A stretch of DNA of 52,111 bases from an uncultured Gammaproteobacteria bacterium (lineage in GTDB: Bacteria > Patescibacteriota > Microgenomatia > UBA12405 > UBA6130): NCBI GenBank assembly GCA_964540975.1, contig CAZIOQ010000021.1, forward strand, positions 1-52,111. Reading direction: 5' to 3'. Positions 6,453-52,111 of the stretch are shown here, one piece after another (the stretch's first letter is position 1; each line of letters starts with the position of its first letter). The translations under genes and the position numbers were made by a program. Under the pieces are notes generated by a model. That model made no database searches, was not told the DNA's origin, and saw nothing but the letters and a program-made list of their open reading frames with translations.

Positions 6453-8465
6453 ATGAAAAAACTATTTGTTGTTGAATCGCCAACCAAGGCCAGAACAATC
6501 AGTAATTTTTTAAAAGACCAGGCTCAAATTTTGGCCACCATGGGTCATATTAGAGATTTGCCAAAATCAAGATTCGGAATTAAGGTAATAGAAAATGGCG
6601 AGATTAAATTTGAACCACAATATAAAATTATTCCCCAAAAACGAGAAATTGTCGCCAAAGTCAAAGAAGCAGTCAAAAAAGCTGACCAAGTAATTTTGGC
6701 CACCGATCCTGATCGGGAAGGCGAGGCCATTGCTTATCATTTGGTTGTTTTAACCCAGAAAAAAGCTTTTCAGGAGGAGAAAAGGGAAAATGAGAAATTT
6801 GTCCGGATAGTTTTTTATGAAATTACTCCTCAGGCAATTCAAAAGGCCTTAGAAAATCCACGGTCTTTAGATTTGAATTTGGTTAATGCTCAACAAGCAA
6901 GACGGGTTTTGGATAGAATTGTTGGTTATAAGCTGTCACCACTTTTGTGGCGAAAAGTCCGCCGGGGGTTATCAGCGGGCAGGGTTCAGTCAATTGCCTT
7001 AAGGTTAATCGTTGAGAGGGAAAGAGAAATTTTAAGATTTAAAGGCGAAAAATTTTACCGAATTTTTGCTGGTTTTGAAAAACAAGAGAAAGATTTTACT
7101 GCTGAATTGGTGAAAATTAAAGATGAATCAGTAGAAAAAACTGAATCAAAAAAACTTTTCGCTGGTCAACATAAAGTGGTGAAAACTATTTTTGACACTG
7201 CCGATAAAGCTTTGGTGGTAATTAAAAGCTTGTCGGTAACCCCTTTTGTCGAAAACTTAGAAGAAAAGGAAATTTTCAAACAGCCTTTACCACCGTTTAC
7301 TACTTCAACCTTGCAACAAACAGCGGCCAGAAAATTTTCTTGGAGTTCAAAGTTAACAATGCAGATCGCCCAAGGACTTTATGAACAAGGTTTAATCACT
7401 TATCATCGCACTGATTCGACCAACTTAAATTTTGCCGCCATTGGTCAACTGAGAAAAGTGATTGAATTAAAGTTCGGCAAGAATTACTTGCCTTTAAAGC
7501 CGCGAATATATAAAACAAAATCAAAATTAGCCCAAGAAGCCCATGAAGCAATCAGGCCAACAAAACCAGATCTGGAAAAGCCAACAAATCTTGATCAGAG
7601 AGCCAGCCGTCTTTATCGCTTAATTTGGCAAAGAGCTTTAGCTTGTCAAATGCAACCAGCAAAACTAGCAATTACCAATGTTTGGATTAAGGATGGTGAT
7701 TATCTTTTTAAAACGAGCGGGACAAGATTACTCTTTGATGGCTTTACTAAAATATATCCAGTATTTTTTCTTAAGATCGAACTGCCAAAACTGGTTAAAG
7801 GAGAAAGATTAGATTATTTGGCTTTAGGTATTAGTGAATATCAAACTCAACCGCCACCGCGTTACCACGAAGCAAGCTTAATTGCTGTTTTAGAAAAAGA
7901 AGGAATTGGTCGGCCTTCAACCTATGCGCCCATTATTTCGATTATTCAACAACGGCTGTATGTGGAAAAAGAAGAAGGTAAATTTAAACCAACCAAATTG
8001 GGGGTGGCAGTCAACGATTTTTTGGTTGAATATTTCCCCAAAATCATTGATCTTCCATTTACTGCTCAAATGGAAGACGATCTCGATCTGATTGCTCAAG
8101 GGAAAAAGGAGTGGACAAAGACAGTAGCTGAATTTTGGCGGCCTTTTATTAATGAAATTGAAAAGACAAAAGAAAATTCAAAGCGGGTAAAAGTCGAAGA
8201 AGAGAAAGTTGACGAAAGATGTCCGGAGTGTCAAAAGGGAGAATTAGTGGTTAGAATAGGCAAGTTTGGCAAATTTATTGCCTGTTCCCGATTTCCTGAT
8301 TGTCGCTACACCCGGCCTTATCTTCAACAAACAAATTTTAGCTGTCCAGATTGTGGGGCGCCGGCGGTGATCAGAAAAACGAAAAAAGGCAAGATGTTTT
8401 ATGGTTGCAGTCGTTGGCCTTCTTGTAAATGGGCTTCTTGGCGAAAGCCAAAAAATAACCAGTGA
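6453..8465 (+). CDS. topA: DNA topoisomerase I
   Basis: TOPRIM N-terminus (LFVVESPTKA, ATDPDREGEAIA), active-site region GLITYHRTDS, and two C-terminal C4 zinc ribbons. The ATG at 6453 is preceded by GGGGGAGGA; the track's 6435 start overlaps the dprA end. Confidence 0.93.
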   Translation: MKKLFVVESPTKARTISNFLKDQAQILATMGHIRDLPKSRFGIKVIENGEIKFEPQYKIIPQKREIVAKVKEAVKKADQVILATDPDREGEAIAYHLVVLTQKKAFQEEKRENEKFVRIVFYEITPQAIQKALENPRSLDLNLVNAQQARRVLDRIVGYKLSPLLWRKVRRGLSAGRVQSIALRLIVEREREILRFKGEKFYRIFAGFEKQEKDFTAELVKIKDESVEKTESKKLFAGQHKVVKTIFDTADKALVVIKSLSVTPFVENLEEKEIFKQPLPPFTTSTLQQTAARKFSWSSKLTMQIAQGLYEQGLITYHRTDSTNLNFAAIGQLRKVIELKFGKNYLPLKPRIYKTKSKLAQEAHEAIRPTKPDLEKPTNLDQRASRLYRLIWQRALACQMQPAKLAITNVWIKDGDYLFKTSGTRLLFDGFTKIYPVFFLKIELPKLVKGERLDYLALGISEYQTQPPPRYHEASLIAVLEKEGIGRPSTYAPIISIIQQRLYVEKEEGKFKPTKLGVAVNDFLVEYFPKIIDLPFTAQMEDDLDLIAQGKKEWTKTVAEFWRPFINEIEKTKENSKRVKVEEEKVDERCPECQKGELVVRIGKFGKFIACSRFPDCRYTRPYLQQTNFSCPDCGAPAVIRKTKKGKMFYGCSRWPSCKWASWRKPKNNQ

Positions 8466-8555
8466 TTGTTCCTGAGGGCAAATGGCCAATTAGGTTAATT
8501 GACAATTCAGCTAATTTTAATTTTGTCCTCGCTATATTATAATTTAAAAGGAAAA

Positions 8556-9614
8556 ATGAAAATTAAACGGAATGTTCTTCTTGCTCCATATACAACTTTC
8601 AGAATTGGTGGGCCGGCTGATTTTTTGGTCGAAGCAAGCGGAGAAAATGATTTGATTTGGGCGATTAATTGGGCAAAAGAAAAAGATATTCCTTTTATTG
8701 TTTTAGGCGGAGGGAGTAATGTTTTGATTTCTGATAAAGGGGTGAGGGGAGTGGTGATAATTAATAGAGTTCAGGATTCAGGGTTCAAGGTTCAAAGTTA
8801 CAGTCCAAAATTTAAAGTTGAGCAAGAAAAAGAAATAATTTTTCCCCGGCTTAAACCATTAAGAAAAAAAGAAATAACCTTTAAGGATTTTGATTATGAC
8901 GAAAGTCATTGTCCAAAAATTGAAGTTGAGGTGGCCTCCGGGGTGACCCTTGGACGCTTAATCGATCAACTTTTACGAAGAGGGATTACCGGGTTGCAAT
9001 GGTTTGTGGCAATTCCAGGGACAATCGGCGGAGCAGTTTTTGGCAATATCCACGGTGGCAGCCATTTTTTCAGTGAGGTAGTCAAAGAGGTAAAAGTTCT
9101 TAATCCTGAAGGTGAAATAAAAACTGTTGTTAACAACGAGTGCCAGTTTGATTATGATCAATCGCGATTTCAAACTAGTGGTGAAATTATTTTGTCGGTA
9201 GTTTTGTCTTTGTACCTGGGTGAAGTGAAAAAAGCTTGCTGGGTAATTAAAGAGTGGGGTGGATTTAAGATCAAAAATCAACCACAAAACTCTGCCGGTT
9301 GTGTTTTTAAAAATCTAGATCAAGAAACTTGTCGCCGACTGGGGTTGCCAACCCCGAGTATGAGTTGGGTAATTGACAAAGTTTTGGGTTTAAAAGGAAA
9401 AAGGATTGGTGGAGCAAAAATTTCCGAAAAGCATGCCGGATTTATTGTTAATGAGAAAAATGCTCAAGCAGAAGATGTTTTAAACCTGATTCGGTTGGTG
9501 CGTAAAAAAGCAAAGGCAAGATTAGGGATTGAGCCAGATTTAGAAATCTGCTTGATTAAAGAAAACGGAATTTGTCATCACCTCTCGGATAATGAAAAAA
9601 ACGAAGAGGGATAA
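8556..9614 (+). CDS. murB: UDP-N-acetylenolpyruvoylglucosamine reductase
   Basis: APYTTFRIGGPADF, LGGGSNVLISD, GIPGTIGGAVFGNIHGG, RIGGAKISEKHAGFIVN. The start is set at the ATG at 8556 because the upstream part of the track ORF contains a TATAAT (8537-8542). There is an apparent ~45-aa insertion after the FAD-binding N-terminus. Confidence 0.88.
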   Translation: MKIKRNVLLAPYTTFRIGGPADFLVEASGENDLIWAINWAKEKDIPFIVLGGGSNVLISDKGVRGVVIINRVQDSGFKVQSYSPKFKVEQEKEIIFPRLKPLRKKEITFKDFDYDESHCPKIEVEVASGVTLGRLIDQLLRRGITGLQWFVAIPGTIGGAVFGNIHGGSHFFSEVVKEVKVLNPEGEIKTVVNNECQFDYDQSRFQTSGEIILSVVLSLYLGEVKKACWVIKEWGGFKIKNQPQNSAGCVFKNLDQETCRRLGLPTPSMSWVIDKVLGLKGKRIGGAKISEKHAGFIVNEKNAQAEDVLNLIRLVRKKAKARLGIEPDLEICLIKENGICHHLSDNEKNEEG

Positions 9615-17106: not shown

Positions 17107-18480
17107 TTAGAGAGGTTCAATGCTGATGATTACCGCTTCATTTGGTTCGAGGGCCACCCGGAAAAACAAACTGTTGTCGGTAGTATTACCAGTTAATCTC
17201 GTATCCTGACCAAAAAGATAATCAAGGTTAATTTTGTATTTACCAGGGGAAAGAGGGAAAACTTTGATTGGTGGCGATTCAAAATGTTTATTTTCAGGAT
17301 CATAATTAACCAACATAATCATTACTAAAGACTTGTCTTGGCTGGCTATGCCGTAAACCCAACTGCCTTCGCCGGTAAGAAAAGTTCTTGTTCCTGTTAA
17401 TTGGTTTAAAAATTGATAGGCTAACCAGCGTGGTTTTGCCCTGATTCCACCTTTTGCTTGATGAGTTAGTAATCCCCAACCTTGGTTGTCATCAGGACCA
17501 TCCTTTATTTCGAAAGCAAAAACTTTATGGACCCGGTCCATTACTTGGGTGATGACCGCCAAATCATGAGCGGCGCCAATATTGTTTTGATACCAAATTG
17601 ATTTTTGGGTCTCTGGTCCAAATTCAGAAATAATTCTTTCAATTGCGAGCCACTCAGGATAATCGGTTAAAATTTGGTTGAAAGCTTCCAAGTCCTGAAC
17701 ATAATCTTGGGGGAGCAAAGAGTATTGGTGCCAGGAGATAAAATCTAATCTTAGTTTTTGCTCGCTAGCAAATTTTAAAAGCGCCTTGACCCAATTTGGA
17801 TAAAAACCAGTAGTGGCCGGACCACCAATTTTGAATGGCTGACATTCAGGTTGAATTTCTTGAGCCGCCTTGGCTGAGTAGTAATAGAGCTTTAAATAAT
17901 TAGGTGATTTGTGGTAATGCCACTGGCCAAAAAGATCTGGCTCGTTAAAAACTTCGTAATATACATTATTTATATTAAGATCATTTTTACCGCTGTAATG
18001 TTTGATGGTTACCTTGACTAGATTTTGCCACAAGGACCAGTTAATCGGCGGAGAAGTAATATTTTTATCTTGGGTCATTTGAGGGGGGATATAAGATAAA
18101 GATAACATTGGCGTCGCTCCGGTTTGCAAAATACTGACGACTACTCGATCTAATTTTGAAAAATCAAAGCTGCCGTCTGATTTTAAAACTTCATAATAAT
18201 CGTAAAGATGGTCAATTCTGATGAATTTTGGCTGAAGTGGGGTAAGCCAGGGCAGCGCTGGTTTAATCATCTCATTTCTTTCTTCTCCGCCTTGGGTAAA
18301 ATTTTGCCAGAGATTAGGATTTATCGGCTGTCCGGTTTGATTAAGGTCAACCGTGATGTTAGCTAATCTCCCCAGAGCTGTTTTCCTCAGCTCAATAATT
18401 TTTTTGACCGCCACTAACAAAAACGGTAGCAGGAATAAAGAAATGAAAAAATATAATGTTTTGTGATTCAATTTATTCAT
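17107..18480 (-). CDS. Secreted or membrane-anchored clan GH-A glycoside hydrolase (GH39/GH5-like TIM barrel)
   Basis: N-terminal TM/signal anchor. Acid/base motif YYEVFNEPD, a DFISWHQY motif, and a candidate nucleophile in IISEFGPE. The family assignment is tentative. Confidence 0.7.
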   Translation of the reverse strand: MNKLNHKTLYFFISLFLLPFLLVAVKKIIELRKTALGRLANITVDLNQTGQPINPNLWQNFTQGGEERNEMIKPALPWLTPLQPKFIRIDHLYDYYEVLKSDGSFDFSKLDRVVVSILQTGATPMLSLSYIPPQMTQDKNITSPPINWSLWQNLVKVTIKHYSGKNDLNINNVYYEVFNEPDLFGQWHYHKSPNYLKLYYYSAKAAQEIQPECQPFKIGGPATTGFYPNWVKALLKFASEQKLRLDFISWHQYSLLPQDYVQDLEAFNQILTDYPEWLAIERIISEFGPETQKSIWYQNNIGAAHDLAVITQVMDRVHKVFAFEIKDGPDDNQGWGLLTHQAKGGIRAKPRWLAYQFLNQLTGTRTFLTGEGSWVYGIASQDKSLVMIMLVNYDPENKHFESPPIKVFPLSPGKYKINLDYLFGQDTRLTGNTTDNSLFFRVALEPNEAVIISIEPL

Positions 18481-18660
18481 TTGCCAAATAATGATTAGTC
18501 TTTTTGGTTGACTTTTTGATCAGAATCCATTTTTTCAAAATCCCTTGTTGACAAAATTAATTGAAAGATATTTACTGATATTAATTAACTCTAAAAGAAA
18601 TTTGACTATTTTGCAATTTTTAAAGATGAGACTTGACAGACCCCAAAAAATTTTGTTTAA

Positions 18661-19620
18661 ATGAAAATAAGTCTTTTAAAATTTTTTAAAATGAAATTAA
18701 AGTTTTCTAGGAAAATTGCTTTTGGTTTTTCCGATCTGATTTTGCTAATTGCTTTAGGTTTACTCGCCTTAATTTTGCCTTTAGGAGTAAGATTGGTTCA
18801 AGAGACTTCCCAACTAGAAAAACAAGCGGTCAGTGCTCTCCCCACGCCTCTTGTCTTAACCCCTCCTTTTCTTGCCGAAGATTATTGTCAAAGTGATTCT
18901 GATTGTCCTTTTGATAAAGCCTGTCTAGATAATCGCTGTCAACCGCCTTCTTGTTTCACGACCATCGGTGGAGAATGCGAAGAATATCTTTATACTGATC
19001 ATTCCTGTTGGTTAGTGGCTAAACCAGATGGGACTGCTTGTGGAGAAGGAGGAAGATGCCGCCATGGAACTTGTCTAGAACCGACGACAGAAGCGGTGAT
19101 TAATTTTAAAATAAGATTTGATGGGGTAACCGAGAAAGTTCCTGATCAAAAAGTAAAGATAAAACTTGTTGGGTTTGAGGAGAGTAAAACATTTGAAGAT
19201 GTTCACGTCACTGCCGACGCCAATGGCGTTTTCAGCGGCACATTTGTTGCTCAAGGAATAAAACCTAGTGGTTGGGCATTTGTGATCAAAGGCCCAAAGC
19301 ATTTGGCAATGAAATTTTGCCATAACAACCAGACTAATATTTGTCTTGGGCAAGGCAATTTGACCATTTTAAAAGGGGAGAACAATTTTGATTTTACTGG
19401 ACTAAAACTGTTAGCCGGTGATATTCCTGATCTTAATGGGATTCAAGATGGAGTAGCTGATAGTAGTGATTTTGCTATTTTGGTTAAAGCCTTAGATGAG
19501 CAAGATCGGTTAAGAATGAATTCTCAACGAGCAGACCTTAATTTTGATCGCTTAAATACAGGAGCAGATATTCAATTGTTCCTCAAGACAGTGGCTGAAA
19601 AATATGCTGATGATTTCTAA
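18661..19620 (+). CDS. Membrane-anchored Cys-rich protein with a C-terminal dockerin-like double Ca-loop
   Basis: N-terminal hydrophobic anchor. 12 Cys in ~70 aa (CQSDSDCPFDKACLDNRCQ...). The C-terminus has GDIPDLNGIQDGVADSSDF and DLNFDRLNTGAD (DxNxDxxxxxxD) repeats. The start may instead be the ATG at 18691. Confidence 0.6.
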   Translation: MKISLLKFFKMKLKFSRKIAFGFSDLILLIALGLLALILPLGVRLVQETSQLEKQAVSALPTPLVLTPPFLAEDYCQSDSDCPFDKACLDNRCQPPSCFTTIGGECEEYLYTDHSCWLVAKPDGTACGEGGRCRHGTCLEPTTEAVINFKIRFDGVTEKVPDQKVKIKLVGFEESKTFEDVHVTADANGVFSGTFVAQGIKPSGWAFVIKGPKHLAMKFCHNNQTNICLGQGNLTILKGENNFDFTGLKLLAGDIPDLNGIQDGVADSSDFAILVKALDEQDRLRMNSQRADLNFDRLNTGADIQLFLKTVAEKYADDF

Positions 19621-19650
19621 AAATTTGTTACTTTTTAGCCAGGAGCAAAA

Positions 19651-20343
19651 ATGCTAGATTTTTCTAAAAAGGCAAAAAAAATAGAAAAAGATAGCTATTT
19701 CTTTTGGGCAATTTTGATTTTGTGTTTTCTAATTATTGGAGAAAGTATTTGGGTAGTAGATAAATTTGTGAGCAAGAGACAACTTATCAGCCCAACCGAG
19801 AAATTTAAAGAAATTATTACTCAACAAGGAGAGACAAAAAAAGCAAAAGAGGTAGAAGTTTGGCTTGAGGGAGAGCAGAATTTAGTGGTTAATGAGTTAT
19901 CAGAAATTGAAATGGGAATAACTGGGCTTGAGGATACCCAAACTTTGGGAGCAGATTTTGTTTTACTTTATGATCCTCGCTTGGTAAAAATTGTTGATCA
20001 AGATACTATTAAAACTGGAGTCCAGATTAAAACATTACCCAACGAGTTAGGCGAGGTGGCCAGAAATTTGGTCGAAGAAGAAAAAGGAAGAATAATTGTT
20101 TCTTTAGTCAATTTAGACAAAAAAGGTGTTTTAATTCAGAAAGACAAGAAGATTCCTTTAGCGCAAATTAGTTTTGTTCCTTTATCTTTGGGCGAAATTA
20201 AATTTAGCTTTCAATTGGCTAGCCAAGAAGAACCAGGAACTAAAATCACAAAAGTAGATCAGATACCAAGTTTGGCCACTTTAGTTGCTAAGGACTATAA
20301 GGTTTCCGTAGTTGAATTACCAAAGAATTTTCCCGAGCAATGA
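19651..20343 (+). CDS. Membrane-anchored cohesin-like domain protein
   Basis: TM segment YFFWAILILCFLIIG. The beta-rich domain contains GADFVLLYDPRLVKIVD, a cohesin-like signature. Its stop overlaps the next start (ATGA). Confidence 0.55.
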   Translation: MLDFSKKAKKIEKDSYFFWAILILCFLIIGESIWVVDKFVSKRQLISPTEKFKEIITQQGETKKAKEVEVWLEGEQNLVVNELSEIEMGITGLEDTQTLGADFVLLYDPRLVKIVDQDTIKTGVQIKTLPNELGEVARNLVEEEKGRIIVSLVNLDKKGVLIQKDKKIPLAQISFVPLSLGEIKFSFQLASQEEPGTKITKVDQIPSLATLVAKDYKVSVVELPKNFPEQ

Positions 20344-21005
20344 AAAAATTAATTCTTTTTCTACTGCTTCTGTTTGTTTTTTTGAGCCTGCCGGGGAAGG
20401 TCCAAGCGGCTAATTTCTATTTGGAACCAAGCACAAGTACTGTTCAAGTGGGGAGCGAATTTGAGGTGGCGGTCTGGATTGATCCAGGGGGAGAAGATAT
20501 TCAGGCAATGGATATTTTTATTAATTATGATGCTACTAGATTGCAAACGAGTCAAGAGCAAATTAAAGATGAACAATATTTTGGGAGTTATGGTAGTTCA
20601 GTCTTTAATGTTTCTGATCCTCCTGGTAAGCTAAGCCTTTATGTTTTTTCTAACCAAGGAACTTATTCTAGAAATACTGAAGGAAAAGTGGTGACGATCA
20701 CTTTTAAAGCCAAAGTTACGGGCACTGCCTCGGTTAATTTCATTTGCGGTGGTGAATCTGGCAGCGCTATTTGGGATTCGGCGGTGACTAATCTGATTGT
20801 CTGTGGGGCCAATGGGTCGGGGAGTTATACTTTGATTGAATCTGGGACAACGCCAACTTTGACTCCCACCGAGATCGAACCAACAGTTGAGGAAACCGCC
20901 ACCTCAACAGCCCTCCCAGAAACTGGTTTTTCTCCTTTTGGTTGGGGAGCAGTGTTATTGGGAGGAATCCTGATCAGTACTAGTTTATTGATATTATTGT
21001 TTTAG
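20340..21005 (+). CDS. Cohesin-like surface protein with an LPXTG sortase sorting signal
   Basis: Signal peptide ending VQA. Cohesin-like VAVWIDPGGEDIQAMDIFINYDATRLQ, a Thr/Pro linker, and LPETG (nt 20913-20927) followed by a 25-aa hydrophobic tail. Confidence 0.7.
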   Translation: MKKLILFLLLLFVFLSLPGKVQAANFYLEPSTSTVQVGSEFEVAVWIDPGGEDIQAMDIFINYDATRLQTSQEQIKDEQYFGSYGSSVFNVSDPPGKLSLYVFSNQGTYSRNTEGKVVTITFKAKVTGTASVNFICGGESGSAIWDSAVTNLIVCGANGSGSYTLIESGTTPTLTPTEIEPTVEETATSTALPETGFSPFGWGAVLLGGILISTSLLILLF

Positions 21006-21016
21006 ACAGGAAAACA

Positions 21017-21610
21017 ATGAAAAAGAATTTAAAAATAATTTTTATTGTGATTATTCTTTTTTCTGCCGGGATAGCAGCGGTTTTTGGGGTGAAAATGGTT
21101 AAGACATATTTAAGTGGCGCCCAAACCGGAACAGCGCCAAAAAATGTCCGGATTCAAGTCGAGACTAATTCCGCCACCATTTCTTGGCAGACAGATAAAG
21201 AATCACAAGGAGTAGTAGAATATGGTGCCAATCAAGCAAGTTTGCTTTTAAGGGTGCCAGAAACAGCGCCGTCAATTAATCACAAAGTGATTTTATCTCC
21301 TTTGAAAGCAGAAACAAATTATTATTTTCGGATTAGAGTTGGCGAGCTAATTTATGATAATAATGGTATTCCTTATACATTCAAAACAAAACCGGTTGAG
21401 GGAGCAGCGGCGACAGCGATACCATCACCTCAAGCGACAATTACTCCAATTACCAAGAAAGAATCAACTCCTTCCGCCAGATTAGTAAAAACCTGTCAGG
21501 CCGAGGAATTTAAAATGAAAATGGGTGGGAGCGATCAGGCTTATGATTTCGATGCCAATGGAGTGGTTAATGCCAAAGACTGGTTGGAATGCCTTAAAAC
21601 AAACAAATAG
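21017..21610 (+). CDS. Membrane-anchored FN3-like protein with a C-terminal dockerin/EF-hand-like loop
   Basis: N-terminal TM segment. FN3-like NVRIQVETNSATISWQTDKESQGVVEYG...YYFRIRV. The C-terminus has DFDANGVVNAKD (DxDxNGxxxxxD) flanked by Cys. Confidence 0.6.
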   Translation: MKKNLKIIFIVIILFSAGIAAVFGVKMVKTYLSGAQTGTAPKNVRIQVETNSATISWQTDKESQGVVEYGANQASLLLRVPETAPSINHKVILSPLKAETNYYFRIRVGELIYDNNGIPYTFKTKPVEGAAATAIPSPQATITPITKKESTPSARLVKTCQAEEFKMKMGGSDQAYDFDANGVVNAKDWLECLKTNK

Positions 21611-34256: not shown

Positions 34257-34973
34257 TCATAGTCTGCTTTCATTAGCAGGAGTTGGTGTCAGGATAGGGA
34301 AGAGGACCATAATTAACAAAGCTTTTTTCTCACCATTAACCTCTTGATAAATTGTGGCAATTTTGTTGCCAATACTTAAATCTTGATAATCAAGATTATT
34401 CTGATCAATTGATCTTATTCGAGTCTGATTATTAATAGTTAATTGGAACGGATTATCCTTGTTTTTTATTGGGGTGAGGGTAACAATTTTTTCATTCACT
34501 GATTTGTCAGAAATGATCCCCACCAGGCAAAAACGGTTTTTTGGTTTTGGTTGATTAAGAATTTGAATCCTTTTGCCTAAGAGTAAATCATCACTGTTTA
34601 AATATCCCATAGCCAAAATTCTTTTGCCAACAATAAGGTCTTCAAGATTAACAGGCTTTCTTTGTTCAGAAATTACAGTTGTTTGGGTGTCGAGCAAAAT
34701 TTCTCTTACTTGATTAGTGGCGGTTTCAATTTTGATACTGGTTTCATCTTTAGCGGTAATAATTCCTACCCAGCCTCTTTTCTTTTTCGCTTCAATAATA
34801 TTTTTAATCTTATCGGCAACCATTTCTTTTAAATTCTGTTTAAATTGTTGGTTTAATTGATTACTCTCGGTCGCATTTTCTGCTCTTACCAAAAAATTGT
34901 TAGGGCTTTTTGTTTGAGGGACTAATATTGTCAAGAGGAAAATAAGTCTGACTAAAAATGTTTTTATTTTCAT
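34257..34973 (-). CDS. Secreted hypothetical protein
   Basis: N-terminal signal/anchor (FLVRLIFLLTILV) and repeated beta-rich segments. No recognised catalytic motif. Confidence 0.5.
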   Translation of the reverse strand: MKIKTFLVRLIFLLTILVPQTKSPNNFLVRAENATESNQLNQQFKQNLKEMVADKIKNIIEAKKKRGWVGIITAKDETSIKIETATNQVREILLDTQTTVISEQRKPVNLEDLIVGKRILAMGYLNSDDLLLGKRIQILNQPKPKNRFCLVGIISDKSVNEKIVTLTPIKNKDNPFQLTINNQTRIRSIDQNNLDYQDLSIGNKIATIYQEVNGEKKALLIMVLFPILTPTPANESRL

Positions 34974-34991
34974 TTTTGATTTTTTGATCCA

Positions 34992-35438
34992 CTAAAATTT
35001 AGCCGTCGAATAAGTAATAGTTAAAAGTTGTTTAGTTTCATTATTCTGCTCATCATAAGCAGCAATTTCAATTTCATTAACTCCGCCAGTTAATTCTAAC
35101 CCTGTTTCAAAATTGCCATTTTCGTCTGCTTGAAGAATAAGTTCGTCCTCTTCGCCAATCAAGATTACTGTTGCTTTTGGGGCCGTTGCCCCTTTTATTG
35201 TTACTGGTGATTTGTTAACCAGACTTTCATTTTCTGGTTCTAAAATAATTAATTTTAATTTTTCTTCAGGCTGAGGGGTGGGAGTTGGTTCAGCGAGGGG
35301 AGTAGTTAAAGATTCTGTTTTCTGGCCCGAGGTTAAAAAAGCCATTTTTGTTTTGAGATTTTGGTAACGACTGACTCCAGCAATTGTCAATCCTAAAATA
35401 GTACCAATAAAAATTGCTAGAAAAACCTCTTTTCTCAT
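34992..35438 (-). CDS. Secreted/anchored protein with an Ig-like domain
   Basis: The ATG at 35438 gives MRKEVFLAIFIGTILGLTIAG (a TM segment), followed by a Pro/Thr linker and an Ig-like segment: VTIKGATAPKATVILIGEEDELILQADENGNFETGLELTGGVNEIEI. Confidence 0.5.
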   Translation of the reverse strand: MRKEVFLAIFIGTILGLTIAGVSRYQNLKTKMAFLTSGQKTESLTTPLAEPTPTPQPEEKLKLIILEPENESLVNKSPVTIKGATAPKATVILIGEEDELILQADENGNFETGLELTGGVNEIEIAAYDEQNNETKQLLTITYSTAKF

Positions 35439-35627
35439 TACTGATAATATAATTTGGTAGAAGGAAAAAGTCAATAACAGAAATTTGGAACACCTCTAAG
35501 GTGTTTTTCCCTTAACACCTTGGGTATTTTTGTCGTCCCAGATAGCGGCTTCTTAAAAAACAGGCGATGATCTGTTGGCTAAGACATAATTTGGATATTG
35601 AAATTCATTTATGTTATATTTGGGAAA

Positions 35628-41530: not shown

Positions 41531-42496
41531 TTTAATAATTTTTTTAAGTTATTAATTTAAAATAATTTTTTTGGAATTAAAGATGGTTGGTCCGAGAAGC
41601 TTTAAAGATCAGGATGGGTGAGAGGGGATAGGGGAATAAGATTAAGCCTATAGTGTTAAGCTTATATCCTATAATGTAAATAAAGTTTCACGAAAACTAT
41701 AGGCCACTTTTCACGAAAACTGATATTTAGCGATTGGCATCTTTAATCGCTAATGATCCCTCAAGTTTATGTTTTTCCCTAAAAATAGGCATAATCTTAA
41801 TTAATATTTTTGATATAGTTTGACTATGTCGTCTCCTTGCCGATCCTCTGGAAAATTGTTTTTGTGGAAAACCTTTTTTATTTATATGGAGATGGGGTGT
41901 TTTTAAGAAGAGATGGTTAGAATCAATATTGCTTATAAAAACTTCGCTTTTTAGGAACGGAAAGGCTTCATTTTTGTCTCTTAGAATGCTCCACCCTTCC
42001 AGAGGACAAGATAAGACAGACGAGAAGGGGGAGAGGGTTTTTCAGAGAGTCGCATAATGTTCCTTTTACGACGTCAAGTTGGCGATCAAAAAAGAGGAGT
42101 AGTTTTTTCAAGTTTAAAATAATTTTTAAATAAATTTTTGAATAAAAATTATTTTTAATATTTGAGTTAATTTTATTTCCTTTTTAGCTAAAACCTTATA
42201 TTCTTATGTTTCTTATATTTTGAAATTTAAAGATTAATTATCAAGATTGTTTTTGGTTCTACTCCCCTTTCTGAGTTTTTGCTAGAAGAAGAGCAAAAGG
42301 TTTATTGATATCGACCTCACCAAAGGCCGCTTAAGACGTTTTTAGACCTAAGGCTTATATTATAAAAATGTTTTTTGATGTTATTTTTTCGAGGAAAAAG
42401 CAGATTTTTGTCTATCCTTAATTCCTTGTTGTTGATCTTTGCTTTATTTTGCATTTCTCAATTTCTCATTTTACTCATTACTTAATTTTTTATAAA

Positions 42497-42526
42497 CTGG
42501 CAAATTATTTTTGAATTATTTGGCAG
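42497..42526. other. Candidate dif-like core site (11-8-11 imperfect palindrome)
   Basis: CTGGCAAATTA-TTTTTGAA-TTATTTGGCAG. The arms match 9/11 as inverted repeats. The site lies 81 nt upstream of the xer-type recombinase gene. Assignment is by architecture only. Confidence 0.25.
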
Positions 42527-42565
42527 GGTTTAAAGTTCTAATCTAATAAAAAATTAAACTGAGGC

Positions 42566-42594
42566 TTGACAAAAGAAAAATTAACAATTAAACT
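42566..42594 (+). promoter_or_regulatory. Candidate promoter of the recombinase gene (TTGACA-17-TAAACT)
   Basis: Consensus -35 at 42566-42571, a 17-nt spacer, and -10 TAAACT at 42589-42594. The ATG is 12 nt further on with no Shine-Dalgarno sequence, so the leader is very short. Confidence 0.45.
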
Positions 42595-42606
42595 CTTAAA
42601 AGCTTA

Positions 42607-43566
42607 ATGTCGCACAATATCGGGGAAAAAATGAATAATTCAATTGATTTTTGGCGAGACAAATTTTTATCTTATTTAGAAATTGAAAAAAATCGTTCTC
42701 CTTTAACTAGCCGTAACTATAACCTTTATCTTAAAAGATTTATCCGATTTTTAGAGCAAGAATTAGGCCACTCCCCCACCCTACAAGATATCCAGATTGA
42801 AAATATCCGGAAATTTAGACTTTTTTTATCAAGAAAAAAAAATCACAAAGGAAATTTTTTAAAAAAAATTACCCAAGCTTATCATTTGATTGCCTTACGT
42901 TCATTTTTAAGATGGTTAATAAAAAATGATTTGAAGGTATTAGCACCAGAGAAAATCGAATTGCCAAAAACAGAAACCAGGTCCTTAAAATTTTTGACTT
43001 TAGAACAGGTAGAAAGATTACTTAATCAGCCAACGATTTCTAATATTATTGGTTTAAGAGATAGAGCGATTTTAGAGACGCTTTTTTCTACTGGATTGCG
43101 GGTTAGCGAGTTAGTCTCTTTGAATCGTGATCAGATCAATTTTAAATCAGGAGAATTGGGAGTGATTGGTAAAGGAGGAAGACCGCGATTAGTTTTTTTA
43201 AGTAAAAGAGCCCGCTATTGGCTTGAGAGATATTTTGTTAGTCGAAATGAGAAATACTCTCCTTGTTTTATTCGTTATTCTGGCAAAAAAGAGGAGATTA
43301 CTAATCCAGAGTCGTTAAGATTAACTCCTAGGTCAATTCAAAGAATGATTGAAAAATACAGCCGACGGGCTGGTATTCCAATTAAAGTCACTCCTCATGT
43401 TTTAAGACATAGTTTTGCCACTGATTTACTTTTTTCAGGAGCAGATCTCCGTTCAGTGCAAGAGCTTTTGGGCCACAAAAATATTGCCACCACCCAAGTT
43501 TATACCCATGTGACGAATAAGCATTTAAGAGAAATTCATCAAAAGTTTCATAGTGGGAATAAATAA
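42607..43566 (+). CDS. Tyrosine site-specific recombinase, XerC/XerD family
   Basis: N-terminal SAM-like domain (YLEIEKNRSPLTSRNY). Catalytic residue contexts: TGLRVSEL (R), GKGGRPR (K), HVLRHSFAT (HxxR), LLGHKNIATTQVYTHV (H...Y). Confidence 0.88.
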   Translation: MSHNIGEKMNNSIDFWRDKFLSYLEIEKNRSPLTSRNYNLYLKRFIRFLEQELGHSPTLQDIQIENIRKFRLFLSRKKNHKGNFLKKITQAYHLIALRSFLRWLIKNDLKVLAPEKIELPKTETRSLKFLTLEQVERLLNQPTISNIIGLRDRAILETLFSTGLRVSELVSLNRDQINFKSGELGVIGKGGRPRLVFLSKRARYWLERYFVSRNEKYSPCFIRYSGKKEEITNPESLRLTPRSIQRMIEKYSRRAGIPIKVTPHVLRHSFATDLLFSGADLRSVQELLGHKNIATTQVYTHVTNKHLREIHQKFHSGNK

Positions 43567-46155
43567 TTATTTCGTTGTCATTGCCGCCACTTTATCATTA
43601 TTTCGTTTATCTAAACGCATCAAAATTACTCCTTGAGTAGCCCTTCCTAATCGAGGAATGTTTCTTAAAGGAAGTCTAATTACCTGAGCTTGTTTGGAGG
43701 TGATAATTACTTGTTGTACCTTTTGATTAACTACTTTGGCATCGGCAAGGTCACCTGTTTTGGGAGTTAAATTGACTGCTTTAACTCCAACACCACCTCT
43801 CTTTTGGAGCGGAAAAAGATAGACACTAGTTCTTTTACCAATCCCATTTTCTGTGACGACTAATAAATCCCTGAAAACCTTTTTTCTTTTGTCCTTAGGC
43901 TTTGGCAGTTTTGTGGGAATAACATCAGCGGTGACTACTACATCGCCGCTTTTTAGGGTAATCCCTTTTACTCCTCTAGCGCTTCTACCCATTGGTCTTA
44001 GGTCATTTTCCCCAAATCTGATACATTTCCCCTTTTTGGTCACCAAAAAGATTTGATTCGTGCCATCAGTGAGTTGGGCATCAATTAGCTTATCGCTAGG
44101 TCTGATATCAATGGCAATAATTCCTGAGGTGCGGATATGAGTAAACTGGTCTAAAGGTGTTTTTTTAATCGTTCCTTTTTTTGTCACCATAAAAACATAT
44201 TTTTTTTGACTCTGTTTTTTCTTAATTAAAACAGTTTTGATATTTTCTTGTTGATCAATGTTAATTAGATTAATAATTGCCTGTCCTTTGGCAATTCTGC
44301 TTCCTTCGGGCAACTCCCAAACTCGGAGTTGGAAAACTTTACCTTTGTCAGTAAAAACCAAAAGATAATCGTGAGTGTTAGCGAGAAGGAGATGTTCAAT
44401 CTCATCGGTTTCTTTTTTGATCATTCCCATTGTTCCTTTTCCGCCTCTCCTTTGAATTCGGAAAGTATCCTTTGGTACACGTTTAATATAACCGGTTTTC
44501 GTGATTACAATGATATTCTCTTCATTGGGGATCAGATCTTCTTCGGAAAATTCACCAATCTTTTGATTAAAAACGCGTGTTTTTCTTAAATCACCATAAG
44601 TAGTTTTTAATTTCTTCAATTCCTCTTGCATTGTTTCTAGCATTTTTTCTGGATTAGTTAAAATTACTGTTAATTCATCAATCTGCTTTTTTATTTCCTC
44701 ATACTCGGCTTCGATTTTTTGCCTTTCTAAAGCAGCCAGTCTTCTTAATTGCATATCCAAAATTGCCGTTGCTTGGAGACTGGTAAGATTAAATCTTGAC
44801 ATCAAATTTTCTTTAGCCACTTCTGCATCTTTTGATTTTTTGATTGTTTCTATTACCGCATCTAAATTATCAAGGGCAATTTTTAAACCCTCTAAAATAT
44901 GGGCTCTTAATTTTGCTTCTTTTAATTCAAAAATAGTCCTTTTTCTGACAATTTCATGGCGGAATCTTAAGAAATAAAGCAAAATTTGTCTTAAATTAAG
45001 TGTTTGAGGAACTCCATCAACTAAAGCAACGATATTGATCGGATAGCTGGTTTGGAGTTCGGTGAGCTTATAAAGTTTGTTTAAAACAGCCTTTGGCACA
45101 GCTGATTTTTTCAATTCAACAACCACCCGAATCCCCTGCCGATCTGATTCATCTCTTAAATCAGAGATACCAATAATTTTCTTTTCTTTGACTAATTCGG
45201 CAATTTTTGCTACCAGATTGGCTTTATTAACTTGGTAGGGGGTTTCCGAAATAATAATTTGGAATTTACCGCCTTTGGTTTCTTCGATATCAGCTTTTCC
45301 CCGGACTGGAATTTTGCCTTTCCCAGTTAGATATGCTTGATTAATTGCTTCTTTATCAAAAATTATTCCTCCGGTAGGAAAATCTGGCCCTTGGATAATT
45401 TTTAGTAGCTCTTCTCCGCTGATAGTTGTTTCAAAATTCAATTTTTCTTTTTCTAAAAGATAAACATCTTTTAAAATCATTTCTTTTTCATCTAATTTGT
45501 CAACGACTTGAATTTTTGGTAGTTCAAAATCTTGTTCTTCTTTTTCTAATTTTCCTTTTTTGAGCATTGCTAAAGTGGCATCGATTATTTCTGAAAGATT
45601 ATGGGGAGGAATTTTAGTTGCCATTCCTACAGCAATACCATCGGCTCCGTTTAAAAGCAGATTGGGGATTTTTGCCGGCAGTACAGTTGGTTCTTTTAAA
45701 GTACCATCGAAATTATCCAAAAAATTGACCGTTTCTTTTTTAAGATCTTCCAACAATTCTCGGCTAATTTTTGCTAATCGGACTTCAGTATAACGCATTG
45801 CTGCTGGGGGATCGCCATCAACTGAACCAAAATTTCCTTGACCATCTATTAAGGGATATCTTGTTGAGAAAATTTGGGCCATTCTGACCAAAGCATCGTA
45901 AACAGGCATATCGCCGTGGGGATGATATTTGCCTAATACCTCTCCGACCACTTTTGCGGATTTGGTATACCTGCCTCCCGGAGACAAACCCATTTGTTCC
46001 ATGGCAAACAAAATTCGGCGATGAACAGGTTTTAGACCATCTCTGACATCAGGCAAAGCTCTCATCACAATGACACTCATTGCATAATCAAGATAAGATT
46101 TTTTTGCCTCTTGGGTAATTTCTGTTGGTTTTATTTTGCCAATAGGAATGATCAT
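43567..46155 (-). CDS. gyrA: DNA gyrase subunit A
   Basis: [17 protein letters not shown], active-site [21 protein letters not shown], and C-terminal beta-pinwheel repeats. Confidence 0.95.
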
Positions 46156-51202: not shown

Positions 51203-51997
51203 TTAGAATAAATCAGAAACCTGTTCTAAATCTGTTTGTTTAATAATAATTTGACTGTTTTTTACTTCTAAATTCGGATTAATCGGTCCGGGATTACAAC
51301 CGCCTTTTTCCGTGGCAATTTTTTCTATAGGATAACGATTACCACAGTTATTACAAACAATTTCATCTCCTTCTTGGCGAAAACCTTTATATGTTTTAAA
51401 ACAGACCTGACAGGCATTAGCCGCCGCTCTGTAGACTCCATTTTTGTCTTTAAGCACAAAAAAATAAATTGTTTTTCCGCTCGGCATTTTCACATTATAA
51501 AACCTTGCTTGATTGTCATCAAAAATTGAAGCAGCCAACTTAACTTCGCCATTTTCTAAATTTACGGCTTCGCCTTTCTCGCCGAAAAACTGAATTTCAG
51601 ATAAGAATTGGGACTGATTTTGATTCTCGGAAAATTGACTTTCTGCTTTTTGACACCCAAGCAATTCACTTAATTCTTCAAAAGTTTTATAACCGGAATA
51701 TACTTTATCATTAATAACAAAAGTTGGGACGCCCTCAAATTGATGTCGGACTGGACCAACCGCCGCGTTAATTTGTTTTACCCTTACCCCCAATTGTTCA
51801 ATCTTTGAAATTGTCCCTTCATTTTTAACTTTTTGACACCAGCTACAAGTATCAAGATAATAAAATATCATTTCTTTAGTTTGACACTGAGTATTTGGCA
51901 AAACACTCTGATCCTTTTTGGAAAAATAGTTCATAGAAAAACCACCGACAATCGTTAAACCAATAACAATGGGAATGGCAAAATATTTTTTTGACAT
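51203..51997 (-). CDS. Membrane-anchored thioredoxin/glutaredoxin-fold + DUF2318-like Cys-rich domain protein
   Basis: N-terminal TM segment, a CSWC redox motif in an FYYLDTCSWCQKV context, and a C-terminal CQVCFKT...CNNCGNRYP...GGCNP pattern like DUF2318 metal-associated proteins. The ATG at 51997 is preferred over the track's TTG at 52015. Confidence 0.65.
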   Translation of the reverse strand: MSKKYFAIPIVIGLTIVGGFSMNYFSKKDQSVLPNTQCQTKEMIFYYLDTCSWCQKVKNEGTISKIEQLGVRVKQINAAVGPVRHQFEGVPTFVINDKVYSGYKTFEELSELLGCQKAESQFSENQNQSQFLSEIQFFGEKGEAVNLENGEVKLAASIFDDNQARFYNVKMPSGKTIYFFVLKDKNGVYRAAANACQVCFKTYKGFRQEGDEIVCNNCGNRYPIEKIATEKGGCNPGPINPNLEVKNSQIIIKQTDLEQVSDLF

Positions 51998-51998
51998 A

Positions 51999-52111
51999 TT
52001 ATTTGAGTTCGTCAATGAGATTAATAATTTTTTCCTTGATTTTGTTTCTTATTTCTCGAGCTTGGTCTAACTCCATTTCTGCTGGATTAGGAAATCGCCA
52101 ATATTCAATAT
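51999..52111 (-). CDS. C-terminal fragment of an unidentified protein (5' end outside the window)
   Basis: Open frame from the window edge: ...IEYWRFPNPAEMELDQAREIRNKIKEKIINLIDELK. The TAA at 51999-52001 lies 1 nt before the next ATG. Function unknown. Confidence 0.35.
   Translation of the reverse strand, partial: IEYWRFPNPAEMELDQAREIRNKIKEKIINLIDELK

Follow-up and report, generated by a model that had tools for sequence, protein, structure and literature searches.

The stretch analyzed here, positions 1 to 52,111 of contig CAZIOQ010000021.1 (assembly GCA_964540975.1; hereafter the window), carries four small genes that probably form a conserved, non-cellulosomal cohesin-dockerin cassette of Microgenomates-type bacteria of the Candidate Phyla Radiation (CPR), serving to fix proteins to the cell envelope. 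Of its four open reading frames (ORFs), ORF1 is predicted to end in an X-module-dockerin (XDoc) dyad, ORF2 and ORF3 are cohesins with different anchors, and ORF4 combines an FN3 domain with a tail that appears to derive from a dockerin. A divergently transcribed glycosidase gene adjoins them. The features of the locus, with the evidence for each in brackets, are:

17107..18480, minus strand: GH39-family glycosidase, membrane-anchored, 457 residues (Pfam, N-terminal hydrophobic segment)
18481..18660, no strand: AT-rich intergenic region of 180 bp, separating the divergent GH39 gene from ORF1 (sequence)
18661..19620, plus strand: ORF1, cargo-XDoc protein, 319 residues, or 309 from the likelier start at 18691 (family, model, hydropathy)
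18886..19074, plus strand: Cys-rich cargo module of ORF1, residues 76-138, 10 Cys (Cys positions)
19093..19410, plus strand: X-module-like β-sandwich of ORF1, residues ~145-250 (alignments, AlphaFold, Foldseek)
19417..19614, plus strand: predicted dockerin of ORF1, residues 253-318 (family Pfam matches, profile, model)
19651..20343, plus strand: ORF2, membrane-anchored cohesin, 230 residues (homologues, profile, AlphaFold model)
20340..21005, plus strand: ORF3, secreted cohesin with a sortase-type C-terminal sorting signal, 221 residues (Pfam, profile, motif)
21017..21610, plus strand: ORF4, N-terminal anchor, FN3 domain and tail with one Ca loop, 197 residues (Pfam, family alignment)

An initial annotation of this DNA, made from the sequence alone, had described four co-directional, tightly spaced ORFs and a divergently transcribed neighbor, and all five are found at these coordinates in the ORF list of the window. 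ORF1 and ORF2 are separated by 30 bp, with an AGGAG inside the gap, ORF2 and ORF3 overlap by 4 bp (ATGA), and ORF3 and ORF4 lie 11 bp apart. The annotation had also placed a signal or anchor at the start of each of the four proteins, and hydropathy analysis (Kyte-Doolittle, 19-residue window) shows one N-terminal hydrophobic segment in all four, with an extra C-terminal one in ORF3 (residues 203-221). Its domain assignments held for ORF2 (anchor and cohesin), ORF3 (signal peptide, cohesin, Thr/Pro linker, LPETG), ORF4 (anchor, FN3-like domain, single Ca loop) and the neighbor (a clan GH-A glycosidase), and, but for the first Ca loop, for ORF1. It had overlooked the X-module in ORF1, the variability of the cargo within the family of this protein, and the fact that the GH39 protein has no dockerin and is not a constant neighbor.

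The annotation had further proposed to examine whether the gene order is conserved among related genomes, and it is. With the XDoc module, in the form of a trimmed five-sequence alignment, we searched GTDB genomes at one per species, which gave 47 loci, and scored hidden Markov models for five families on all ORFs of these loci. The order XDoc protein, transmembrane (TM) cohesin, LPXTG cohesin, FN3 protein was complete in 27 of the 47, each from a different GTDB species, and partial in 12 more, some of them cut by contig ends; the same order is found in three independent metagenome contigs (L006, L008, L009). Since the order recurs so widely, the four-gene cluster does not owe its existence to chance, and a fortuitous grouping of β-sandwich proteins is excluded. 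All named records among the 47 loci are Microgenomates-type (Candidatus Shapirobacteria, Roizmanbacteria, Woesebacteria) or unclassified Patescibacteria metagenome-assembled genomes, and the third-party annotation (TPA) label "uncultured Gammaproteobacteria" that occurs among the loci looks like a placeholder name.

ORF3 is a secreted cohesin that ends in a sortase-type signal. The cohesin (residues ~25-165) comes after a signal peptide (residues 1-23, ending in VQA before an A) and leads into a Thr/Pro linker; the LPETG motif then occupies residues 192-196 (nt 20913-20927), and residues 203-221 (nt 20946-21002) form a hydrophobic tail. Pfam Cohesin (PF00963) matches residues 32-130 with 43.5 bits (cut-off 24.1), and the family profile matches solved cohesins, for example 4ums at 2.6e-6. 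A set of 35 homologues, 22-52% identical to ORF3 of the window, shows no variation at the P and G of LPxTG or at C136 and C155 of the cohesin, and 33 have the pattern [LIVA]P.[TSA]G within their last 45 residues, followed by a hydrophobic stretch.

Three Candidatus Woesebacteria loci are built differently at this point. In L037, L044 and L045 (~8400-9600) just one cohesin protein, of ~350 residues, is encoded after the XDoc gene, and in place of LPXTG it bears a TM helix with a tail that is rich in Pro and presumably cytoplasmic; judged by its sequence, this appears to be a different anchoring solution within the same cassette.

Searches of the PDB with the single sequences of ORF1, ORF2 and ORF3 were uninformative, and only profiles and structure resolved their domains. 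This is most evident for ORF2, which itself has no Pfam match at E ≤ 1 and for which BLASTP against ORF3 found nothing. The protein has a TM helix at residues 18-36 (nt 19702-19758) with a conserved IGESIW, a linker of ~30 residues and a β-sandwich at residues 68-221 (nt 19852-20313). It has a single close homologue, 58% identical, which Pfam Cohesin matches above the cut-off, at 30 bits. A HMMER search of 1.8 billion representatives yielded 49 relatives at E ≤ 0.001, mostly proteins of ~200 residues with a TM helix and a β-domain, and Pfam Cohesin matched 16 of 32 family members. The family profile aligned with the solved cohesins of ScaB (3l8q, 6e-8) and NagJ (2.5e-5), and hhalign related it to ORF3 with a probability of 96.3%. 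In the AlphaFold model (pLDDT 89.2) an N-terminal helix precedes a β-sandwich whose top 50 Foldseek matches in the PDB are all cohesins. From the family profile, the homologue and the model we conclude that ORF2 is a cohesin, which its N-terminal helix holds in the membrane.

Anchors of the ORF2 type carry a nearly invariant Ile-x-Glu (LIIGESIW), with the Glu inside the TM helix or at its outer edge. This conserved Glu suggests an intramembrane or interfacial partner.

For ORF1, the initial annotation had given the boundaries 18661-19620. An ORF of this extent exists, but translation probably starts at 18691, because Met11 is nearly invariant in the homologues and because, on three of the four contigs that carry the window locus (L001, L002 and the NCBI record), gene callers give a protein of 309 residues. 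At the N-terminus of the protein, a hydrophobic signal or anchor is followed by the module of 10 Cys, then by an X-module-like β-sandwich and finally by a predicted dockerin. The Cys-rich module (residues 76-138) yielded no detectable homologues and only weak, sub-threshold Pfam matches (Dumpy_DPY 18.7 bits, EB 15.9 bits). ORF1 homologues match only the C-terminal ~55% of the protein (~175 residues), and what precedes XDoc varies within the family (n=49): a cohesin in 12 members, a β-helix in 3 and an M4 peptidase in 2, with RCC1, LamG (Laminin_G_3) and PKD/Big domains in others.

Between the Cys-rich module and the dockerin lies a conserved β-sandwich of ~105 residues, in whose alignments the motif IKGPKHL is invariant and two Cys (C220, C228) are conserved as a pair. 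The dockerin itself is most apparent at the level of the family, where Dockerin_1 matches 39 of 49 members (best 1.2e-13) and the profile matches more than 20 solved dockerins (best 2y3n_B at 1.5e-7). Here the annotation had seen a Cys-rich module followed by a duplicated dockerin-like segment with two Ca loops. The 10 Cys and the dockerin assignment stood, and both GDIPDLNGIQDGVADSSDF and DLNFDRLNTGAD are present near the end of the protein, but only the second loop is canonical. The dockerin opens with the first loop, which is non-canonical and contains an insertion; a helix and a linker lead on to the second loop, DLNFDRLNTGAD, after which comes a long helix. With D-x-[DN]-x-[DN]-G-x-[IV]-x-x-x-D as the canonical 12-residue pattern, the second loop conforms except for an Arg at position 6.

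The structure model agrees with this layout. AlphaFold, run with an alignment built from database proteins, predicts residues 140-319 of ORF1 (180 residues) as a β-sandwich packed on a three-helix dockerin (pLDDT 93.8, pTM 0.89), with strands in model residues 6-111 (pLDDT > 94) and helices at model residues 129-139, 146-151 and 162-179, in the order loop-helix, linker, loop-helix. The five top PDB matches in Foldseek are all XDoc chains of type II cohesin-dockerin complexes (4u3s_B, 5m0y_B, 2b59_B, 5g5d_B, 4fl4_L), aligned end to end over 175-181 columns with E-values of 5e-5 to 2.5e-4; the next matches have E ≥ 3e-3 and are unrelated. Since the five best end-to-end matches are all XDoc and a clear gap follows, the model indicates that ORF1 ends in an XDoc dyad behind a cargo that varies between lineages. 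The outcome that the annotation had set against itself, namely that the putative cohesins would turn out to be unrelated β-sandwiches without dockerin folds beside them, did not arise, as the ORF2 model matched cohesins and the ORF1 model XDoc chains.

Relatives have a second flavor of dockerin beside the cassette, with the pattern GDLNCDxxIDExDL...W.P.GPVPTP.P...AD...D.KVDExDL. It occurs in large proteins (one of 772 residues and a 1013-residue NHL-repeat protein), in small Cys-rich proteins and in a cohesin protein (L005 2621-4939 and 4936-7977; L006 383-895; L008 433-1323; L009 1754-2059). Going by their sequences, these dockerins could dock to the ORF1-borne cohesins of the relatives. A motif search of the window, second flavor included, found no dockerin-type Ca loops besides those of ORF1 and ORF4.

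Many otherwise unrelated secreted proteins at these Microgenomates loci have at their N-terminus a TM helix and, after it, the conserved motif Q-x2-Q-E-[IL]-R-[KR]-K-A (for example L008 433-1323, L010 3019-3888 and L005 9960-10970), and ORF1 of the window bears a degenerate form of it (18733-18830). The motif could be a lineage-specific processing or sorting signal.

ORF4 has a hydrophobic anchor at residues 7-25 and a conserved TYLSGA. Its FN3 domain spans residues 40-124 (nt 21134-21388), and a Pro/Thr linker joins this domain to a tail bracketed by two Cys (C160 to C192, nt 21494-21607), in which one canonical Ca loop, DFDANGVVNAKD, occupies nt 21545-21580. The FN3 domain is recognized by Pfam as Pur_ac_phosph_N (35.3 bits, cut-off 30) and as fn3 (25.0 bits, cut-off 25), with matches to the former in 31 and to the latter in 26 of 33 homologues. 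The tail differs within the family: about 12 of the 33 members have two Cys-bracketed loops, window-like members have one, their first repeat having decayed, and four have none. The family profile matches the second repeats of solved dockerins and also EF-hands; hhalign between the ORF4 and ORF1 families aligned irrelevant N-terminal regions and was uninformative. Because the window protein has one loop where relatives have two, and 18 of the 33 family members match Dockerin_1, we conclude that the tail is derived from a dockerin without being a full one.

Taken together, these assignments would allow the following mechanism. A sortase, whose gene would lie in another part of the genome, would join ORF3 covalently to peptidoglycan; ORF2 would remain in the membrane. 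Of the two dockerin-type tails, the XDoc of ORF1 and the tail of ORF4, each would plug into one or the other cohesin in a Ca-dependent manner, and ORF1 would thereby show its cargo on the surface: in the window the disulfide-rich module, and in relatives a further cohesin able to recruit other dockerin proteins, or a protease, β-helix or lectin-like domain. ORF4 might act as a membrane-proximal strut or as a tether from membrane to wall. Anchored cohesins that recruit dockerin-tagged partners, as the initial annotation had envisaged, would fit the conserved synteny and the predicted XDoc fold. Further support comes from extracytoplasmic pairs of Cys that are conserved in the X-module, in the cohesin of ORF3 and in the tail of ORF4. 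Host attachment or glycan harvesting, which it had offered as roles, is conjecture. A sortase family is reported to occur almost throughout the Microgenomates (PMC6744442).

Several observations weigh against the proposal that the cassette fixes proteins to the envelope in this way. A sortase, for which the annotation had suggested a search, did not come to light in the DNA at hand: a motif search found no TLxTC-type ORF in the window or in the fetched flanks. ORF3 of the window ends in LLILLF, without the positively charged tail of textbook LPXTG signals, and only 17 of 33 homologues have a K or R among their last 8 residues. On the side of the ligands, Dockerin_1 reaches 18.2 bits on ORF1 of the window (residues 262-306), below the Pfam cut-off of 22.9, and the first loop is non-canonical, with an insertion of 4-5 residues; in short-loop relatives (GDLPPQDGVVN) its positions 1 and 3 have neither an acidic residue nor Asn. 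ORF4 of the window has a single loop instead of two repeats and no Dockerin_1 match at E ≤ 0.1, and its single repeat may fail to bind any cohesin. The geometry of the assembly would moreover change with any cleavage of the hydrophobic segments at the N-termini of ORF1 and ORF4. Finally, a mirror-tree comparison of module distances over 30 loci did not separate the possible pairings (r 0.69 vs 0.63 and 0.54 vs 0.48).

The pairing matters for a second reading, in which ORF4 in the membrane binds ORF3 in the wall and ORF1 binds ORF2, so that the cassette is a device of envelope architecture providing membrane-to-wall tethers, and the variable modules of ORF1 are secondary. The mirror-tree trend slightly favors these pairs, the dockerin with ORF2 and the tail with ORF3, although the differences are small. 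Presence and absence of the modules did not assign the pairs: L026 lacks both the Ca loop of ORF4 and the ORF2-type cohesin, and L027 and L042 have lost the loop and kept the cohesin. Four single-copy partners that look stoichiometric, encoded in a tight operon with translational coupling, would suit such a device, as would the membrane anchors on three of the four proteins and the MurJ gene that adjoins the cassette in L006 and L008. However, the strong diversification of the ORF1 N-terminus is typical of outward-facing proteins driven by interactions rather than of a structural strut. Furthermore, the Ca loop of ORF4 has disappeared in some lineages that retain the rest of the cassette. We therefore regard this reading as unlikely, though it is the strongest of the alternatives.

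Next to the cassette lies a gene whose product might make it a minimal true cellulosome, with cohesins that scaffold glycoside hydrolases for the nutritional degradation of plant or microbial polysaccharide. The protein encoded at 17107..18480 matches Pfam Glyco_hydro_39 (E 4.6e-21; 75.6 bits, cut-off 26), and its closest solved relatives are GH39 β-xylosidases (E 1e-18). It contains the motifs NEP (YYEVFNEPD) and ISEFG; by inference from the family, their Glu residues are the predicted acid/base and nucleophile, respectively. Orthologues occur near the cassette in two arrangements, downstream on the same strand in L006/L007, L008 and L019 and upstream and divergent in L030, L034 and L053. Within the fetched flanks they are found at 4-5 of the 47 genome loci, in addition to L006/L007, L008 and the window. 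Assuming one GH39 gene per genome of ~1 Mb and loci of 16 kb, fewer than one would be expected, so that by this rough estimate the association would exceed chance. GH39 is thus a recurrent but facultative neighbor of the cassette.

Relatives provide further arguments for a cellulosome: the ORF1-family protein often carries a cohesin before XDoc, like an adaptor scaffoldin, large dockerin-bearing proteins are encoded near the cassette in L005, and a pectate lyase in L010. Against this, the GH39 protein has a membrane anchor of its own (residues 11-29) and no dockerin in a Pfam scan of its 457 residues, and for these reasons it is not docked. Since, in addition, the window holds neither a carbohydrate-binding module (CBM) nor a multi-cohesin scaffoldin, the cassette is by definition not a cellulosome. 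Nor does the window offer dockerin-type Ca loops on potential enzymes, all of them being in ORF1 and ORF4; its cargo is a small Cys-rich module and not an enzyme, that of relatives includes protease, RCC1 and β-helix domains, and at most of the 47 genome loci no GH39 gene is within reach. A cellulosomal role is thus improbable, somewhat more so than an architectural one, and GH39 probably acts alongside the cassette on surface or host glycans.

In two unrelated contigs, genes for MurJ/Polysacc_synt_3 flippases directly follow the cassette and GH39 (L006 5536-8815, L008 6884-8578), and in L006 PilN/PilO come next.

That the cohesin-like modules do not bind the dockerin-like ones at all, both kinds being independent Ig-like spacers, Ca-binding stabilizers or carbohydrate binders that are merely co-regulated, would accord with the single loop of ORF4, with the atypical first loop of ORF1 and with the work of Peer et al. 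(2009), who reportedly found such modules to be widespread outside cellulosomes with mostly unknown partners, but it is very improbable, given that two cohesins and two dockerin-type tails have been kept together in the same order across species at 25-50% protein identity and that the fold of the XDoc dyad is known only as a cohesin ligand.

The cassette does not stand out from its genomic surroundings. Its GC content of 0.36-0.38 is the same as that of the surrounding housekeeping genes (S2, EF-Ts, RRF, RseP, S21, YqeY, YbeY, DnaX, RecR), on which ground we rejected an origin from a mobile element or by recent transfer. The window contig is present in at least four metagenome assemblies. The intergenic region 18481..18660 presumably holds the divergent promoters and contains three TTGAC(A/T) motifs; a consensus scan for promoters and terminators gave no site above threshold in it and returned nothing beyond chance.

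Elsewhere in the window, cumulative GC skew peaks at ~42000-44000, where gene orientation switches from plus to minus. A gene for a XerC/D-like tyrosine recombinase (42607-43566, plus strand) lies exactly at the switch and is followed by gyrA/gyrB on the minus strand; the region resembles a replication terminus. Two adjoining envelope proteins are encoded at 34257-35474 (minus strand), one a TM protein of 160 residues with a Glucodextran_B/Big_6 Ig-like domain (E 6e-9) and the other a secreted protein of 238 residues without a family match. The membrane-anchored protein encoded at 51203-52015 (minus strand) has a clear FtrD-like Cys-rich domain (E 1e-26) and a weak, sub-threshold thioredoxin-like match (E 0.0026). 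If active in extracytoplasmic redox reactions, it might relate to the conserved disulfides of the cassette.

Cohesin and dockerin modules are already known outside cellulosomes, and the cassette is built from known modules, with its function inferred. The closest parallel is ScaE of Ruminococcus flavefaciens, a single cohesin with an LPXTG anchor that binds the XDoc dyads of CttA, ScaB and a cysteine peptidase (PMC12484212). Like ORF3, ScaE consists of one cohesin, a linker and an LPXTG sortase signal, and like ORF1, its ligands carry a C-terminal XDoc behind variable modules (the CBMs of CttA, the cohesins of ScaB, a peptidase). Both systems have clustered genes and a role in wall anchoring, which for the cassette is predicted. 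They differ in that the cassette belongs to Microgenomates of the CPR and the ScaE system to Firmicutes, in that the window is without CBMs and dockerin-bearing enzymes, and in the non-canonical first loop of the ORF1 dockerin; moreover, the cohesins and XDoc of the cassette are only ~12-19% identical to solved ones. What the cassette has beyond the ScaE system is ORF2, a second cohesin, which is anchored in the membrane, and ORF4, an FN3 protein whose dockerin is apparently reduced; we know of no counterpart to either in the sca cluster of R. flavefaciens.

A second parallel is the type II anchoring of clostridial cellulosomes (the XDoc of CipA with SdbA/OlpB/Orf2p in C. thermocellum, ScaA/ScaB in A. 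cellulolyticus), to which the best fold matches of the last 180 residues of ORF1 belong (2b59_B, 5g5d_B, 5m0y_B, 4u3s_B). There, too, an XDoc binds a cell-bound cohesin, as would be expected for the cassette. In clostridia, however, S-layer homology (SLH) modules fix the anchoring cohesins, in place of an LPXTG signal or a TM helix at the N-terminus, and, unlike ORF1, the protein with the XDoc is a primary scaffoldin with multiple cohesins, a CBM and a load of enzymes. The cohesin-like module of the GH84 protein NagJ and the FIVAR-dockerin toxins of Clostridium perfringens share with the cassette a non-cellulolytic use in assembling secreted or surface proteins, and the ORF2 profile match to the NagJ cohesin falls within this system. 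In C. perfringens the modules sit on large, mutually associating glycosidases, whereas the cassette consists of small, dedicated anchor proteins in a fixed four-gene order. In the literature that we searched, we came across neither the cassette nor a cohesin-dockerin operon from any CPR bacterium.

The bond between CttA-XDoc and ScaE resists forces of 600-750 pN and connects cell wall and substrate (PMC4266597). It is because of the analogy with this complex that we consider strong attachment or display at the surface of an episymbiont cell the likely use of the cassette. More speculatively, the cassette may be a Microgenomates-wide plug-and-display device, in which sortase-fixed and membrane cohesins hold rapidly exchanged, XDoc-tagged cargo, an ultrastable Ca-dependent bond keeps the cells on their hosts, and the one-loop dockerin of ORF4 is a new, minimal cohesin ligand. 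We put this forward tentatively, as a possibility that is more doubtful than not. If it were true, the cargo would comprise adhesins, proteases and adaptor cohesins, through which ultrasmall cells would stay attached to their hosts and work on them.

XDoc-type, sortase-anchored cohesin-dockerin anchoring has hitherto been characterized in cellulolytic Firmicutes, and the cassette would add a distant phylum and a context without cellulolysis. Its highly diverged cohesin-dockerin pairs could serve as orthogonal parts in the engineering of protein assemblies. The four proteins are small, and it is feasible to express their modules and to assay them in pairs for Ca-dependent binding and for mechanical strength. 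To our knowledge, the way in which CPR/Patescibacteria attach to their hosts is largely unknown beyond a few cultured Saccharibacteria. For this attachment the cassette is a concrete, widely conserved and experimentally tractable candidate, and its variable cargo position points to the outward-facing molecules of each lineage.

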